Shown here: piece after piece, positions 6,030 through 62,763 of the stretch
How the letters are laid out: every line of letters begins with the position of its first letter
Position numbering within the stretch: position 1 is the first letter of the stretch
Source of the DNA: Mustelus asterias
Lineage: Eukaryota
Reading direction: 5' to 3'
DNA: 64,000 nt
NCBI RefSeq assembly: GCF_964213995.1
Contig: NW_027590701.1
Span: forward strand, 62,001 to 126,000
The notes under the pieces: model-generated
Database searches by the model: none
Seen by the model: only the letters and a program-made list of their open reading frames with translations
What the model was told of the DNA's origin: nothing
Made by a program: the position numbers and the translations under genes

Positions 6030-6262
6030 TTGTGAGACTTCTTACTGTGTCCTGCCTCATTATTTTGTAAATTGTGTTTGTGAACTGAAATCTCACTCAC
6101 CTGATCAAGGAGCAGCACTTCGAAAGCTAGTGGCTTTTGCTGCCAGATAAACCTGTTGGACTTCAACCTAATGTTGTGAGACTTCTGACTGTGTTTACCC
6201 CAGTCCAATACTCGATTTGGATGAATTGGAAAAGTATTAAAAAAAACTCCAGTATCTCCACA
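6030..6262 (+). mobile_element. Penelope-like terminus (family 1), partial tandem, degenerate hammerhead
   Basis: ttgtgagacttct(t/g)actgtg repeated at ~6030 and ~6174; cacctgatcaaggagcagcacttcgaaagctagtg; flanked by tcctg(c/t)cctg duplication. Confidence 0.7.
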
Positions 6263-6361
6263 TCCTGTCCTGGACACAGAGAGCTGGAAATCTCCATGCA
6301 GGCGGCCAGACAGATATATGTCTATCTGACTGGACTAACAATGTGTGGAATGTACAGACTG

Positions 6362-6745
6362 GGAGAACAATGGGTGGGGGCGGGGCTCCCGGGTCTGTGC
6401 GCCTGAACCCGGAGACGTCACCATGGAGCACAGTGATTGCTATTGGCTGAATCAGGAGGGGTCCATTGTGCCGTCACAATGACTCAGAGGGGCGTTCCCA
6501 GCACACAGTGTCCCATTGGCAGCAATATCACTGGTTACAGAAGCAGCACACTGCGGATTGGACACCAGCTCAGCGCGGCTGGCGGTCAAAGCCCCGCCCA
6601 CCCCCACGTGGGCTCGGGTTCCGCCCCCTCATTGTCTCCATGCGGCAGATTGACCAATGGCAACGCGTGGAGGACCGGATGGGCGCTGGTCCTCCAGCCA
6701 ATCAGAGTCCGGCCCCTGTGTCAATGCCGCGCGGAGCTTCCTGTG
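6362..6745. promoter_or_regulatory. CpG-rich promoter between the ZNF relic (-) and ZNF-3 (+)
   Basis: GC boxes (ggggcgggg), several CCAAT boxes, a CRE-like site and the spaced palindrome at 6668-6696. Confidence 0.65.
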
Positions 6746-7095
6746 GACATGAATGTGGGGGTTCGATCAGTAAGTTTGCTGATGGTCCAAAAATTGGTGA
6801 TGTGGTAAATAGCGAGGGGGAAAGCCTTAGATTACAGGATGATGTGGACGAGCTGCTTAGATAGGCAAAATAGTGGCAATTGTAATTTAACCCTGAAATG
6901 TCTGAGGTGATGCATTTTGGAAGGACTAACAAGGCAAGGGAACAGATAATGAACAATAGGACGCCAGGAAGTACAGAGGACCAGAGGGACCTTGGGGTGC
7001 ATGTCCATAGGACCCTGAACACAGTAGGACAGATTGATAAACTTGTTAAGAAGGGATATGGGATACTTGTCTTTTTTAGCCAAGGCATCAAATAT

Positions 7096-7390
7096 GCGTG
7101 GACCTGCAGAGTTTCACTGGCTGTCTTGTCTGGAGACAATACACATCTTTTTAGCCTGTCTTGATGCTCTCTCCACTCCCATTGTTTTGTTTCTTAAAGA
7201 CTGGATTAGTTGTAAGTATTCGCATTCCAACCATTATTCATGTAAATTGAGTCTGTGTCTTTATAAGTTCTGTTTGTGAACAGAATTCCCACTCACCTGA
7301 AGAAGGGGCTCAGAGCCTCGAAAGCTTGTGTGGCTTTTGCTACCAAATAAACCTGTTGGACTTTAACCTGGTGTTGTTAAACTTCTTACT
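7096..7390 (+). mobile_element. Penelope-like element terminus (family 1) with 9-bp TSD
   Basis: TSD atcaaatat at 7087-7095 and 7391-7399. Carries a hammerhead motif and the aataaacctgttggactttaacctggtgttg tail. Confidence 0.8.
7294..7330 (+). ncRNA. Minimal type I hammerhead ribozyme motif (Penelope-type)
   Basis: CAC-CTGAAGA-A-GGGGCT-cag-AGCCTC-GAA-AGCT-T-GTG: conserved core, stem II, palindromic stem III and short stem I. Confidence 0.7.
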
Positions 7391-8772
7391 ATCAAATATT
7401 ACAGCAGGCAGGTTATGATTGAGTGTATAAAATGCTGGAGTACTGTCTGCAGTTCGGGTCACCACACTTTAGGAAGGATGTGATTGCACTGGAGAAGGTG
7501 CAGAGGAGATTCACCAGGATGCTGCCTGGGCTGGAACGTGTCAGTCATGAAGAGAGGCTGGTTAGGCTCGAATTGGTCTCCCTAAAGCAGAGAAGGCTGA
7601 GGGGGGGCCTGATTGAGATGTACAAAAATATGAACGCTCAGTTCACTGACCTTTAGTAGCTGGGTCAATATCCAGGGACATAGATTTAAGTGAGGGGCAG
7701 GAGAGTTAGAGGGGATTTGAGGGAAACAATTTTCACCCAGAGGGTGGTGGGAATCGGGAACTCACTGCCTGATTGGGGGGGGGGGGGGGGCAGGGGGAGG
7801 TGGGAACGCTCAACAGTAAGAAGCATTTAGATAAGTACTTGAAATGTCATAACATATAAGGCTGCTCCTGACCAAGTGGTGAAAGGTGGGATTAGAACAG
7901 ATTGGTGCTTGAGAGCTGGCACAAATACGATGGGTCAAAGGGCCTCTTGCTGTGTTTTAAAACTCTGAGGACAGAATTATGACAGTGTGGTTATGTGTTA
8001 AATATTGGATGGTTCTATAATAAAGTACATTTATTATTATTTCTTGTCTTGTAATATAGTACTGTAGCTATGTTATATATTTCCAGTCAGAGCCATTATA
8101 GCACAGGGGGAGTCCATTGGACAATTCAAGGCCCTGCTGACTCTCTGTCGAGCAATTCTGTCAGTCTGGAGAGGGTCCCATTCTGTACTCCTGCAGCACC
8201 CATCCAATCACATTTAGAAATTACTGACCATCTCTGCTTGACTACCCTCACAGGCAGCAAGTTCAGGAGCATGACTAATCACAACCCCCATATCTTAACC
8301 AACTTACAGATTTAGGGGAATGAGTGGGGAAAGAATGTTCTATAGAAACTAGAATTATCTGTTCTGAATTTTGATCCTGTAGTGACTGTGATGTCTGCTG
8401 CAAATTCCTTTTATAGGATATCAGAAGGTTAGGATCCATTGACAGAATCCCAAACCATGCGCCACGTCAAGATTTGACAGTCGCTCAATTCATCTGGACC
8501 TGAATACCATCGGCCTTTGCATCTAGAAGGAGAAATGTTTCTCTATTCTGTCTGCTTCAGAAGGCGTTAAATGTCAGTGTGACTGGAAAAGCACCAACGC
8601 ACACACACACCCGAGTGAGAGTGTTCCAGTGCACTGACTGTGGAAAGAGCTTTAACCAGTTATATAGCCTGAAAATACATCACAGCTTTCACAGTGGGCA
8701 GAGACTGTACCCGTGTTCTGTGTGAGATTTAACTGATTGTTTAACCTGGAGAGTCACAAGGACACCTGAACC

Positions 8773-9615
8773 ATGGAGAAACCATGGAAATGTGGGGACT
8801 GTGGGAAGGGATTCAGATTCCCATCTCGGCTGGAAATTCATCGACGTATTCACACTGAGGAGTGGCCATTCACCTGCTCTGAGTGTGGCATGGGATTCAC
8901 TTATTTCTCCAAGCTGTTGAACCACAAAGTCACTCACACTAATGAGAGACCCTTTAAATGCTCCGACTGTGGGAGCAGCTTCAAAAGGGCGCAGGAACTG
9001 CTGAGACACGAGCGAATTCACACTGAGGAGAAACCGTTCAGCTGCTCTCAATGCTCAAAGAGATTTAGATCAACATCCAACCTGCAGGAACACCAGCGAG
9101 TTCACACCAGTGAGAGACCCTTTAAATGCTCCGACTGTGGGAGTGAATTCAAAAGGTCTCAGGATCTGAGGGACCACCAGCACATTCACACCGAGGAGAG
9201 ACCATTCAGCTGCTCTCACTGCACAAAGAGGTTTCGAACATCATCCCACCTGCAGAGACACCAGCGAATTCACACTGGGGAGAAACCATTCACCTGCTGT
9301 GTGTGTGGGAAGGGATTCATCGATTCATTCAACCTGCGGGAACACCAGCGAACTCTCATTGGGGAGAGGCCATTTATCTGCTGTGTGTGTGGAAAGGGAT
9401 TCACCCGGGCATCCAGCCTGCTGACACACCAGCGGGTTCACACCGGGGAGGGGCTGTTTACCTGCTCTCACTGTGGGAAGGGATTCACTCAGTTATCCAG
9501 ACTGCAGGTACACGTTCGAGTTCACACTGGGGAGAGACCATTCACCTGCTCTGTGTGTGGAAAGGGATTCACTCAGTCAACATCCCTGCAGAGACACCAG
9601 CGAGTTCACAAGTGA
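8773..9615 (+). CDS. C2H2 zinc-finger protein ZNF-3, 10 fingers (finger 7 lacks the last His)
   Basis: 280 aa intact ORF MEKPWKC...HQRVHK with accATGG Kozak context. Confidence 0.92.
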   Translation: MEKPWKCGDCGKGFRFPSRLEIHRRIHTEEWPFTCSECGMGFTYFSKLLNHKVTHTNERPFKCSDCGSSFKRAQELLRHERIHTEEKPFSCSQCSKRFRSTSNLQEHQRVHTSERPFKCSDCGSEFKRSQDLRDHQHIHTEERPFSCSHCTKRFRTSSHLQRHQRIHTGEKPFTCCVCGKGFIDSFNLREHQRTLIGERPFICCVCGKGFTRASSLLTHQRVHTGEGLFTCSHCGKGFTQLSRLQVHVRVHTGERPFTCSVCGKGFTQSTSLQRHQRVHK

Positions 9616-9874
9616 TGACAGGGGTTGGATTCTGCTGTTATTGCTGCTGTTAATCACATCCAGGACTGAACCATGTTCATTCTGACAGTTGATGAAGCGG
9701 GAGGGTCGGAGGGTTTCTTTCTGCTGGACTGGCCGGTCGCACAACTTTGCTTCCAATGGGCTGATGCTCTTTGAGCCTGGGAGAGCACATTTCCACTGAA
9801 ATGATCCACAAAAGCTGATGAAGGACATTTATTTTTCTGGGATAGTAAATAGTGTTTTTCCGACCACTACAGGT

Positions 9875-17942: not shown

Positions 17943-18046
17943 GCCAGCTGAGGGAGTGGGGGAGCGGACTTTGCAAAATCACTTCCCATCATTTTCTTCC
18001 AAGTCCCGCAGTTTGATTTGAAACAGAACAGCTTCTGTTTGGAGCC

Positions 18047-18270
18047 TCACCACAGACTCAAACTTCACACACAGACTCAAACTTCACCACAGACTCAAAC
18101 TTCACACACAGACTCAAACTTCACCACAGACTCAAACTTCACACACAGACTCAAACTTCACCACAGACTCAAACTTCACCACAGACTCAAACTTCACCAC
18201 AGACTCAAACTTCACACACAGACTCAAACTTCACCACAGACTCAAACTTCACACACAGACTCCAACTTCA
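18047..18270. repeat. Minisatellite of 18/20-bp units cacagactcaaacttcac(ac), ~12 copies
   Basis: Directly visible tandem array. Confidence 0.95.
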
Positions 18271-18636
18271 TCCTCTGGACAACATCTGTGAGGAAAACAC
18301 TTTCTTTCTCCCCCTGGGAAATACAGAGACAGAGAAATTCTCTGGAACTGGAATTAGAGCCAAATATACTGAGGGGGAAATGTTTGTGATTTTGTGGAAC
18401 CTGTTTTTATTGTCTGAGCTTTTTAAAGTGTAATTTATCCTGTCTATTCAAATAGTGTTTCTTAATGCATGATCAGTGATGTTAATTTTAGATTAATTTT
18501 TAAAGTAAATTTTAAAAAAAATGAAACATTGTCTTTCAGTTTATTCCATTGGGATTTGTGGGAATGTGTTTATTATAAGGTGATCATGAGGATCGTAACA
18601 ACATTGATATGTCTGGTGTTGGTGCATATGATGTAG

Positions 18637-18832
18637 AGATGCCGGTGTTGGACTGGGGTAAACACAGTAAGAAGTCTCACAACACCTGGTTAAAGTCCAA
18701 CAGGTTTATTTGGAATCACGAGCTTTCAGCGTGCTGCTCCTTCTCACCTGATGAAGGGGCAGTTCTCTGAAAGCTTGTGATTCCTAATAAACCTGTTGGA
18801 CTTTAACCTGGTGTTGTGATACTTCTTACTAT
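18637..18832. mobile_element. Penelope-like inverted terminus pair (family 1)
   Basis: 18665-18743 is the reverse complement of 18752-18830; hammerhead core at 18745-18779. Confidence 0.8.
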
Positions 18833-24162: not shown

Positions 24163-25985
24163 ACATAGAACATAGAACATAGAAAGCCACAGCACAAACA
24201 GGCCCTTCGGCCCACAAGTTGCGCCGATCACATCCCCACCTCTAGGCCTATCTATAGCCCTCAATCCCATTAAATCCCATGTACTCATCCAGAAGTCTCT
24301 TAAAAGACCCCAACGAGTTTGCCTCCACCACCACCGACGTCAGCCGATTCCACTCACCCACCACCCTCTGAGTGAAAAACTTACCCCTGACATCTCCTCT
24401 GTACCTACCCCCCAGCACCTTAAACCTGTGTCCTCTCGTAGCAACCATTTCAGCCCTTGGAAATAGCCTCTGAGAGTCTACCCTATCCAGACCTCTCAAC
24501 ATCTTGTAAACCTCTATCAGGTCACCTCTCATCCTTCGTCTCTCCAGGGAGAAGAGACCAAGCTCCCTCAACCTATCCTCATAAGGCATGCCCCCCAATC
24601 CAGGCAACATCCTTGTAAATCTCCTCTGCACCCTTTCAATGGCTTCAACATCTTTCCTGTAATGAGGTGACCAGAACTGCGCGCAGTACTCCAAGTGGGG
24701 TCTAACCAGGGTCCTATAAAGCTGCAGCATTATCTCCCGACTCCTAAACTCAATCCCTCGATTAATGAAGGCCAGTACGCCGTACGCCTTCTTGACCGCA
24801 TCCTCCACCTGTGAGGCCGATTTAAGAGTCCTATGGACCCGGACCCCAAGGTCCTTCTGATCCTCTACACTGCTAAGAATGGTACCCTTCATTTTATACT
24901 GCTGCTTCATCCCATTGGTTCTGCCAAAATGGATCACCACACACTTATCCGGGTTGAAGTCCATCTGCCACTTCTCCGCCCAGTCTTGCATTCTATCTAT
25001 GTCTCGCTGCAACTTCTGACATCCCTCCAAACTATCCACAACACCACCTACCTTGGTGTCGTCAGCAAACTTACCAACCCATCCCTCCACTTCCTCATCC
25101 AGGTCATTTATGAAAATGACAAACAGCAAGGGTCCCAGAACAGATCCCTGGGGCACTCCACTGGTCACTGACCTCCACAGTAAGAAGTTTAACAACACCA
25201 GGTTAAAGTCCAACAGGTTTATTTGGTAGCAAATGACCTCCATGCAGAGAAAGACCCCTCCACAGCCACTCTCTGCCTTCTGCAGGCAAGCCAGTTCTGG
25301 ATCCACAAGGCAACAGCCCCTTGGATCCCATGCCCTCTCACTTTCTCAAGAAGTCTTGCATGGGGGACCTTATCGAACGCCTTGCTGAAGTCCATATAGA
25401 CCACATCCACCGCTCTTCCTTCGTCAATGTGTTTGGTCACATTTTCAAAGAACTCAACCAGGCTCGTAAGGCACGACCTGCCCTTGACAAAGCCGTGCTG
25501 ACTACTTTTGATCATACTAAACTTCTCTAGATGATCATAAATCCTGTCTCTCAGGATCCTCTCCATCAACTTACCAACCACTGAGGTTAGACTCACCGGT
25601 CGGTAATTTCCCGGGCTGTCCCTGTTCCCTTTCTTGAATATAGGGACCACATCTGCAATCCTCCAATCCTCCAGAACCTCTCCTGTCTCCATCGACGATG
25701 CAAAGATCATCGCCAAAGGCTCCGCAATCTCCTCCCTCGCCTCCCACAGTAACCTGGGGTACATCCCATCCGGTCCCGGCGACTTACCAACCTTGATGCC
25801 ATTCAATAGTTCCAACACATCCTCTTTCTTTATGTCCACATGCTCGATCCTTTCTGTCCACCGCAAACCAGCAGTACAACCACCCAGATCCCTTTCCACC
25901 GTGAATACCGAGGTAAAGTATTCATTAAGCAGCTCCGCCATTTCTAACGGTTCCGCACAAACTTTTCCCCCTTCACCTTTTAAGG
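24163..25985 (-). mobile_element. Young CR1-like LINE with near-complete RT domain, split by a 56-bp insertion
   Basis: [34 protein letters not shown] and KFADD motifs; (ttctatg)n tail. Confidence 0.95.
25178..25233 (-). mobile_element. 56-bp Penelope-like 3' end with 9-bp TSD inside a LINE RT
   Basis: TSD tgacctcca at 25169-25177 and 25234-25242; matches the reverse complement of 7336-7390. Confidence 0.88.
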
Positions 25986-30277: not shown

Positions 30278-30949
30278 GATGCAGGTGTCCTTGCCTCTCT
30301 CTTGGGTGGACAATTAGTTGAAACTTCGTCCACACACAGAACAAGATTACAGTCTCGACCCGCTGTGAATGGTGTGATATTTATTCAGACTGTGTAACTG
30401 GTTAAAGCTCTTTAGTCAGTGCATTGGAACACTCTCACTCAAGTGTGGCAGAGTGTTGATGCTTTTTCACTCACACTGACATGTCAAATCTTTTCAAATC
30501 GACAGACTGGACAATCATTTCTCCTCCTGGATTCAAAGTTCGATGATATTGAGGTCCCAAGGGATATGACTCTGTCACGTCTAGACGTGATGTTTGAGAT
30601 TTCAGCCTGTGATTCCTCTTTCAAGATCCTGTAAAATGAGTTTCCAAAAGTCATCAGTGTCAGTGCAGGATAGAAATTCAGAACAGACAATTTCTATGGA
30701 ACATTCTTTCCTCTCTCATTCCCCAAAAGCTGTAAATCTCCATCCCACACACTCTCTCCCCATTCTCAACAGGTCTGGCAGCATCTGTATGGAGAGAAAA
30801 GAACTGATGTTTCAGAGCTTTGACAAAGGGTCATCTAGACAAGAAACATCAGCTCTTTTCTCTCCTTACAGATGCTGCCAGACCTGCTGAGATTTTCCAG
30901 CATTTTCCCTCCTGGTTTCAGATTCCAGCATCCGCAGTAATTTGCTTTT

Positions 30950-45279: not shown

Positions 45280-45860
45280 AGTGTTTTACTCACAGATGTT
45301 GATGATTGGAGAAGTTTGAGCCTGTCTGAAGCTCAATCTTCATTCAGAGAGAGATCAGCAGCTTTGCTGGGCAGGAATGAGCAGCTGAACAAGCTCATTG
45401 TCCACTTCCGCATTCAGACAATGGGGAAGCTCTGATTGGATGGAGGACCCGAGTACTTCCGGTCCTCCAGAGTTCCCATTGGTCAATCCCCCGCAGACAG
45501 ACAATGAAGGGCGGAGCCTCACGTGGGGGTGGGCTGGACTTTGTCCTCCAGCCGCGCTGAGCTGTTGTCCAATGGGAAAGGCTGGAAGACCCGGACAGAC
45601 AAAGGTCAGTGGGCCGGCTTTGGCCCGGGCCCCGCCCCACACCCGCACATGCGCATTCCCCCAAAACCCGCACATGCGCACCTCTGATTCACTGCCGCTC
45701 ACCAGCTCCGGCCAATGGGAAGACTTGGAGGACCGGAAGGATCCTGGTCCTCCAGCCAATCAGAGCGCGGGCTTTGTGTGAATGAAGATTGAGCTTCAGA
45801 CAGACTCCAACTTCCTCCTGTTTCAACCTAAAAGAGGCCAACATCTGTGAGTAAAACACC
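45280..45860. promoter_or_regulatory. Bidirectional promoter of ZNF-9 (-) and ZNF-10 (+)
   Basis: Mirror-image exon-1 donors (aacatct/gtgagtaaaacac) at both ends, two CCAAT-palindrome modules, central GC box and NRF1-like acatgcgca x2. Confidence 0.8.
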
Positions 45861-62594: not shown

Positions 62595-62763
62595 CCATTC
62601 CAACCATTATTCTGTAAATTGAGTCTGTGTCTTTCTATGCCCTGTTTGTGAACAGAATTCCCACTCACCTGAAGAAGGGGCTTAAGGCCCCAAAAGCTTG
62701 TGGCTTTTGCTACCAAATAAACCAGATGGACTTTAACCTGGTGTTGTCAAACTTCTTACTGTG
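62595..62763 (+). mobile_element. Penelope-like terminus (family 1), hammerhead with GAAA>AAAA
   Basis: Closely similar to 7224-7390. Confidence 0.8.

Follow-up and report, generated by a model that had tools for sequence, protein, structure and literature searches.

A minimal hammerhead motif beside a zinc-finger gene of Mustelus asterias lies in the end of a young Penelope-like element, whose genomic copies suggest paired insertion at a symmetric target and occasional RNA cleavage

The window (the whole 64,000-nucleotide stretch of contig NW_027590701.1 that was analysed, positions 1-64000) contains a cluster of C2H2 zinc-finger (ZNF) genes, each with one coding exon and with divergent promoter blocks (one, at 45430-45850, has a donor on either side); several of the genes look decayed. 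One of them, in which the frame 8773-9615 encodes 10 C2H2 fingers, has a promoter-like block upstream, and between the two lies a decayed LINE fragment, which we take to be CR1-like. The LINE is interrupted by a short Penelope-like (PLE) sequence carrying a hammerhead motif on the same strand as the ZNF frame, and the reverse transcriptase (RT) frame of the LINE resumes across the target duplication of the inserted copy. The features of the locus and of related copies in the window are given in Table 1.

Table 1. Features of the hammerhead-bearing insertion, its surroundings and related copies in the window
Feature	Position	Strand	Remarks
Older copy	6064..6270	+	hammerhead 6098-6132, core mutated (G8>C)
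Promoter-like block	6557..6726		common to paralogous ZNF loci
Decayed LINE fragment hosting the insertion	6755..7960	+	65-82% identical to other local copies
Left target duplication	7087..7095		ATCAAATAT; last T common to element
5'-truncated end (3' UTR / pseudo-LTR) of young Penelope-like element	7095..7390	+	296 bp
Minimal type I hammerhead	7294..7330	+	predicted cut after U7327
Hammerhead helix I	7294-7296 with 7328-7330	+
CUGAAGA	7297-7303	+	followed by unpaired A 7304
Hammerhead helix II	7305-7310 with 7314-7319	+	6 pairs, one G-U
GAAA	7320-7323	+	palindrome AGCU at 7323-7326
AATAAA in pseudo-LTR	7346..7351	+	18 nt past cut site
Right target duplication	7391-7399		inferred 12-bp target 7391-7402, then agCAg
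ZNF coding exon	8417..9615	+	inferred from paralogue: acceptor 8415-8416, ATG 8773
Fold-back insertion	18630..18830		minus arm 18630-18742 with tail; plus arm short, hammerhead 18745-18779
58-bp stub	25176..25233	-	starts 8 nt downstream of cut site
Copy	62596..62763	+	hammerhead 62666-62702 with G12>A

On re-reading of the sequence, this motif and the three further copies reported by a first-pass annotation were all found where that annotation had placed them. The minimal type I hammerhead it proposed is confirmed: the order CAC / CUGAAGA / A / GGGGCU-CAG-AGCCUC / GAA / AGCU / U7327 / GUG is the type I order with CUGANGA, GAAA and UH, and the core, stem II, AGCU palindrome and CAC/GUG pairing are as it described. 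Its stem III holds as a palindrome, but not as a helix of the monomer, where only A15.1-U16.1 could pair around GC; stem III is a 4-bp intermolecular helix only. In isolation, the 57-nt region is predicted to form stem II and a competing hairpin instead of the hammerhead, which fits the dimer requirement and the low activity reported for such motifs in the available text of PMC4209133. The predicted cut falls 99 nt 5' of the ATG in full elements. An Rfam search returned 10 matches at E<=5, with no hammerhead among them. Downstream of the cut, AATAAA is a possible poly(A) signal. On the minus strand, a consensus splice donor (CAG/GTGAGT, 7285-7299) overlies helix I in every aligned subfamily.

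A descriptor scan for minimal type I hammerheads detected two complete motifs, whose cores lie at 7297 and 18748 of the window, compared with a chance expectation of 0.067 from 30 order-3 Markov simulations; the core of the second, at 18745-18779, is intact. Across the 3.68 Gb genome, the hammerhead pattern has 40,060 + 40,064 = 80,124 matches (0 for the reversed control), and a 29-mer just downstream of it has 171,007. Of 245 arms spanning the hammerhead, 225 have an intact core; the sample was partly selected by that core, and the flanks are likewise conserved. The unpaired A between A9 and helix II occurs in all 245, the first pair of helix II is G-C in 225 and G-U in 17, and the palindromic positions 15.2-16.2 (AGCU) carry G in 244 and C in 242. 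Variation is found mainly at N7 (A 185, T 34, C 26), at H17 (T 194, A 29, C 22, G 0), in loop II and as wobble swaps in helix II. Genome-wide patterns give 583 copies with G at cut position 17 against the 80,124 matches, an apparent avoidance that is suggestive only, as few lineages underlie the counts. Helix II pairs 1-4 are 99-100% paired, with G-C/G-U/A-U swaps. In a formal test the signal of covariation is weak: over 21 helix II variants 97% of cells pair and two pairs vary on both sides, values reached by 21-32 of 500 shuffles.

The insertion is, with near certainty, the 5'-truncated end of an autonomous Penelope-like retrotransposon. Its 296 bp are identical at 296/296 positions to one genomic locus (L061) and at 295/296 to another (L013), where the same sequence directly follows RT/GIY-YIG frames. 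A search with the RT part gave 23,904 candidates, of which 150 were scored. Five of 16 long loci fetched (L081-L085) have the structure repeat (with hammerhead), 893-aa open reading frame (ORF), repeat (with hammerhead), where the repeats are 3,097 bp apart and the hammerhead is identical to that of the window. Six full ORFs differ by 0-17 of 2,730 nt, and are therefore members of a young branch. The single 893-aa ORF matches RVT_1 (E=4.9e-10) and carries DKG at 297 and VVY..YIG at 791-808; the Pfam GIY-YIG model matches the C-terminal part with E=1.7e-4 and 22.3 bits, just under the cut-off of 22.6, and is absent from the full-protein search output, and relatives of the protein carry PF01541. 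These loci bear out the Penelope-like origin and the recent mobility proposed from the window alone, and link the motif to RT/GIY-YIG frames. The element also has the anatomy of pseudo-LTR elements (partial tandem, inverted truncated copy, optional tail and target duplication). What does not survive is the description as a short retroelement family, since the motif belongs to the 3' end of a 3,097-bp autonomous unit. A short, self-spreading, non-autonomous ribozyme family of retrozyme or SINE type, to which the many short copies and 171,007 repeat ends might point, is scarcely credible: 5' ends vary in position and join the coding frame without a break, the full-length copies have the very same hammerhead, and tandem monomer arrays were not seen in the loci examined.

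Two further observations concern the structure of the element. A sense GT..AG intron candidate lies at about 7213-7283, upstream of the hammerhead; no matching joint was found in contigs of related organisms, contigs that are fragmented by the repeat. One full locus (L084:4141-4213 and 7238-7310) has an insert of about 73 bp with a 16-bp duplication at the ORF end, changing the last residues; this insert marks the youngest branch, having been acquired by an active master and then spread.

Among named proteins, those closest to the element protein are from sharks (82-95% identity), followed by one from a turtle at 42%. Between RT and GIY-YIG, at 754-762, is a C-X4-C-X2-C linker corresponding to the CX2-5CxxC motif of Neptune/Nematis type. 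We prefer a placement in Neptune because it is among the two clades that the accessible part of bioRxiv 10.64898/2026.07.22.740005 reports for vertebrates. As far as the available text of PMC8557442 and PMC3846280 describes them, C-terminal EN+ PLEs of the Neptune/Nematis type share with the shark element the RT plus GIY-YIG frame, the linker, partial tandems, inverted 5'-truncated copies, a 30-40 bp tail often at one end, and target duplications. They differ in that duplications are 8-10 bp in the rotifer examples (12-13 bp here), that targets are microsatellites, unlike the symmetric target described below, and that the one-tail rule is near-obligate in the shark (97/101). Minimal hammerheads in PLE repeats, their cleavage as dimers, and their solo and opposite-strand copies are known (PMC4209133, PMC6765202, PMC6155905, in the parts available). 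The shark motif resembles the metazoan pLTR min-HHR of PMC4209133 in the type I core, the unpaired base before helix II, G10.1-C11.1, the palindromic 15.2-16.2, the short helix I and long helix II, in its location in flanking repeats, in being mostly solo and in its opposite-strand pairs. With at least 80,124 copies it is more numerous than the roughly 4,000 of coelacanth and 9,000 of Xenopus given there by another search method, and the accessible text of that paper names no sharks and describes no genomic junction excess at the cut site. Non-LTR retrozymes (bioRxiv 10.64898/2026.07.22.740005, available part) also have a type I hammerhead derived from PLE repeats and are present in a chondrichthyan, but are tandem non-coding monomers, whereas the shark copy is a dispersed fragment of a coding element. 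Being a solo fragment continuous with that element, the window copy is not a non-LTR retrozyme.

The 3' ends of the family fall into two groups, at about -38 and about -1 counted from the ATG. The two ends lie 36-38 nt apart, and the window copy has the short, tail-less end (-37). Inverted tail-out pairs combine one tailed and one short arm in 67/73 cases of a first set, in 97/101 after new loci were added (27/28 among the new loci), and in 52/58 of a third set; the pairing code missed some true pairs, so that the list of single arms is impure. Duplication lengths were taken from 56 of the 73 pairs, the other 17 being dropped because no duplication was found or both ends were of one class. In 40 of these 56 mixed pairs the duplication is 12 bp (23 pairs) or 13 bp (17); the remainder are 11 bp (5), 14 bp (5), 15 bp (2) or shorter (4). 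Centring the sites on the duplication, without motif fitting, gives T in 23/28 and G in 26/28 at -10/-9, and C in 26/28 and A in 24/28 at +8/+9. TG and CA occur together at -10/+8 of the duplication centre in 38/52 (random control 0.8%), and both are present in 8/15 and 23/44 of later sets. In 350 arms CA peaks 12-14 nt past the element end (68, 82 and 89, against 19-41 elsewhere). At the level of genomic sequence, the preferred target of the family is established as a symmetric TG-N16-CA.

The 58-bp stub in the window has a 9-bp duplication within a perfect TG-N16-CA target. Solo copies, that of the window included, often keep 9 of the 12 bp of the duplication (8 cases). The left flank of the window copy, aGgc, makes its site a half match to TG-N16-CA, and the copy appears to have lost 3 bp at its 5' join. 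As a separate observation, independent insertions at L001, L014, L016/L017, L022, L104 and L126 share one position of the host LINE RT region, a near-perfect TG-N16-CA, which is a hotspot inside another retroelement.

The arms of 54 of 57 young pairs are of one subfamily, while random pairs differ in 74%. At two loci (L036 and L123) the arms differ at 6 diagnostic sites each within one duplication, and at a third (L039) at 2; two different RNAs may at least sometimes template one event. The proposal that both arms always derive from one RNA is weakened by these 2-3 of 57 pairs joining different subfamilies, although gene conversion or assembly mixing could also yield them. A two-copy fold of residues 1-480 of the element protein scored 0.38 (best control 0.02), with contacts in residues 42-80, contact agreement of at least 31% and pLDDT of at least 59. 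This score passes the mark used, which was reached by 21/30 solved microbial homodimers and 0/23 monomers, and among eukaryotes by 17/29 homodimers and 0/30 monomers (animals 7/16, but only 1/7 for those without an older solved relative). The model supports, but does not show, dimerisation of the element protein.

Junctions at the 5' ends of arms also bear on the hammerhead. We counted arms in which neither of the two bases before the start matches the element. At the five positions counted, in 49,324 arms of this branch, there are 159 at -103, 200 at -102, 421 at -100, 1,567 at -99 and 845 at -96. Position -99 is the first base past the predicted hammerhead cut, and about 3% of young arms begin there. 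The -100 count is, by our estimate, close to that expected from background and a chance T ahead of -99, and the count at -96 is raised by point mutants of older branches (5/20 loci by script, about 12/20 by eye), compared with 0/30 loci in the -99 class. Of the 24 loci of the -99 class with an inverted partner (one insertion counted twice), 23 have a partner that also starts at or past -99, against 4/10 in the -102 class (p=0.0009). An older subfamily, with GTGATT past the cut and a size only estimated (4/117 arms), shows no such -99 class: it gives 136 matches, of which about 1/30 loci look doubly cut, and 5/30 loci are microhomology joins through helix I. Its predicted helix I energy is -2.9 against -6.0 kcal/mol; weaker helix I as a reason why the -99 class is not replicated in this subfamily is post hoc only. 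One genome copy (L234) and one contig joint (4655 to 4467 on L084) join the cut-site region directly to about +77 to +92 of the ORF; such joints would reflect either template jumping at the 5' end of the RNA or a small circle.

On these junctions we lean towards the view that the hammerhead cuts RNA in vivo. The main rival is transcription starting at the same base, or another RNA-processing end, with the hammerhead serving mainly in protein binding or dimerisation. PLEs have internal promoters in their repeat (PMC2377424, available part), and a G stands before several -99 junctions, which is what copying of a cap would leave, though many of these Gs stem from the partner arm. The peak is not seen in the older subfamily, and for the Poseidon element PAc of Anolis carolinensis the accessible text of PMC11167929 reports that ribozyme cleavage is not needed in vitro and that no RNA ends at the cut site. 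Against a start, the peak sits on the exact base that hammerhead chemistry predicts, which counts for cleavage, and G is avoided at the cut position. Six young arms begin at -141 to -135, just 5' of the hammerhead (in a biased sample), and this cluster is a better candidate for a transcription start. We consider the start reading rather unlikely overall, and an RT stall or microhomology artefact of local structure less likely still. A hairpin is indeed predicted over -107 to -88, and helix I complementarity did make the microhomology joins of the older subfamily; however, -99 lies in the loop of that hairpin and not at its 3' base, and in 0/30 loci of the -99 class does the partner arm run through the hammerhead.

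Cleavage as the preferred source of the -99 junctions can be combined with the insertion anatomy. We regard it as quite probable that the family inserts by way of a symmetric protein dimer, that the ribozyme cuts a few percent of the copied RNAs, and that the window copy is inert. For the insertion itself a double-nick, double-priming route is likely, as a duplication with two outward-facing 3' ends would, from its geometry, imply nicks on both strands and 12-nt 3' overhangs as primers. The element protein would dimerise, and each nuclease would nick one of the strands, some 2 nt 5' of CA(G), so that the 12-nt 3' overhangs remain. Each overhang would then prime reverse transcription, one at about -1 and the other at about -38, and the two cDNAs would be joined head to head, or one would be lost to give a solo copy with a shortened duplication, like that of the window. 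The hammerhead, active only as an AGCU dimer and perhaps aided by protein, would have cleaved the template of some 3-5% of young arms, where copying would run off at -99. A more elaborate machine of two proteins and two RNAs, in which a dimer makes the 12-nt staggered cut at the palindromic TG-N16-CA site and primes from both ends, at the two fixed start sites, on two RNAs that the dimeric hammerhead keeps together, is a tentative and doubtful extension. When the ribozyme dimer fires, both templates would be cut, giving mirror stubs that both start at -99, and the mixed-subfamily insertions L036 and L123 would be a trace of two templates. If true, it would explain the inverted repeat, the one-sided tail and the dimer-only ribozyme together.

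The nearest described mechanism is that of PAc, which, according to the accessible part of PMC11167929, likewise has two RT start sites bounding the tail, cutting and extension of both strands, a predicted dimer via an N-terminal helix, and a hammerhead near the ORF start. Unlike the shark element, it prefers AT-rich ATT sites and starts inside the ORF; in the shark the tail ends at the ATG and the cut site is 99 nt upstream of it. The same text gives no sign of cleaved PAc RNA in vivo, as against the roughly 3% of young shark arms that begin at the cut. The motif is a published kind of biology, whereas we have not found the family-level junction excess, the symmetric target or the pair anatomy in print. 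Our literature search, which covered few subscription papers, turned up neither a symmetric target for a PLE nor a peak of junctions at a hammerhead cut, and the part of PMC3681739 available has nothing on PLE targets. Whether PLE hammerheads cut in cells, and how the inverted ends and the one-sided tail arise, are stated as open in the accessible parts of PMC4209133, PMC8557442 and PMC11167929. With its tens of thousands of nearly identical copies, this young family keeps a record of how it works, and the genome yields predictions at single-base level for the nick position, the 12-nt stagger, the two start sites and the cut site. A retroelement with a sequence preference and double priming would depart from the R2/L1 model.

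For the ZNF gene, the placement proposed by the first-pass annotation, in sense between a promoter-like block and the coding exon, is correct, but cutting of the pre-mRNA is unsupported. In a paralogue, a short exon with its donor comes after the promoter block. This exon-1 donor motif is present at four paralogues and was not found between 6650 and 8420, where the LINE begins directly past the promoter block. Within the 84 kb examined, same-strand hammerheads occur at -1039 (G12>A), 6098 (G8>C), 18745 and 62666 (G12>A); those nearby either have a mutated core and precede the promoter block or lie 11.4 kb downstream, and the likely ZNF intron has no intact cis partner. It is very improbable that cleavage of the ZNF pre-mRNA by the window copy regulates or disables the gene. 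The sense orientation, intact core and position of the copy would allow this, and the 80,000 copies could supply partner RNAs in trans; yet single minimal hammerheads showed no detectable cleavage and dimers only low activity (PMC4209133, available text), the monomer fold is not the active one, a cis partner is lacking, and with the exon-1 donor missing the transcript itself is putative. Contigs over 6200-9800 contain neither the empty site nor ZNF splicing, the repeat fragmenting contigs here as well. That the window copy is inert towards the ZNF transcript is highly probable, and the AATAAA at 7346, as a candidate signal, may be a more ordinary route to an effect on the gene. Elsewhere in the window, an array of 18-19 bp repeats (18033-18270) lies just 5' of a ZNF exon-1 donor, and a 120-bp hairpin with long inverted arms (30768-30888), whose weak matches to miRNA models are below cut-off, is probably a small DNA-transposon-like element.
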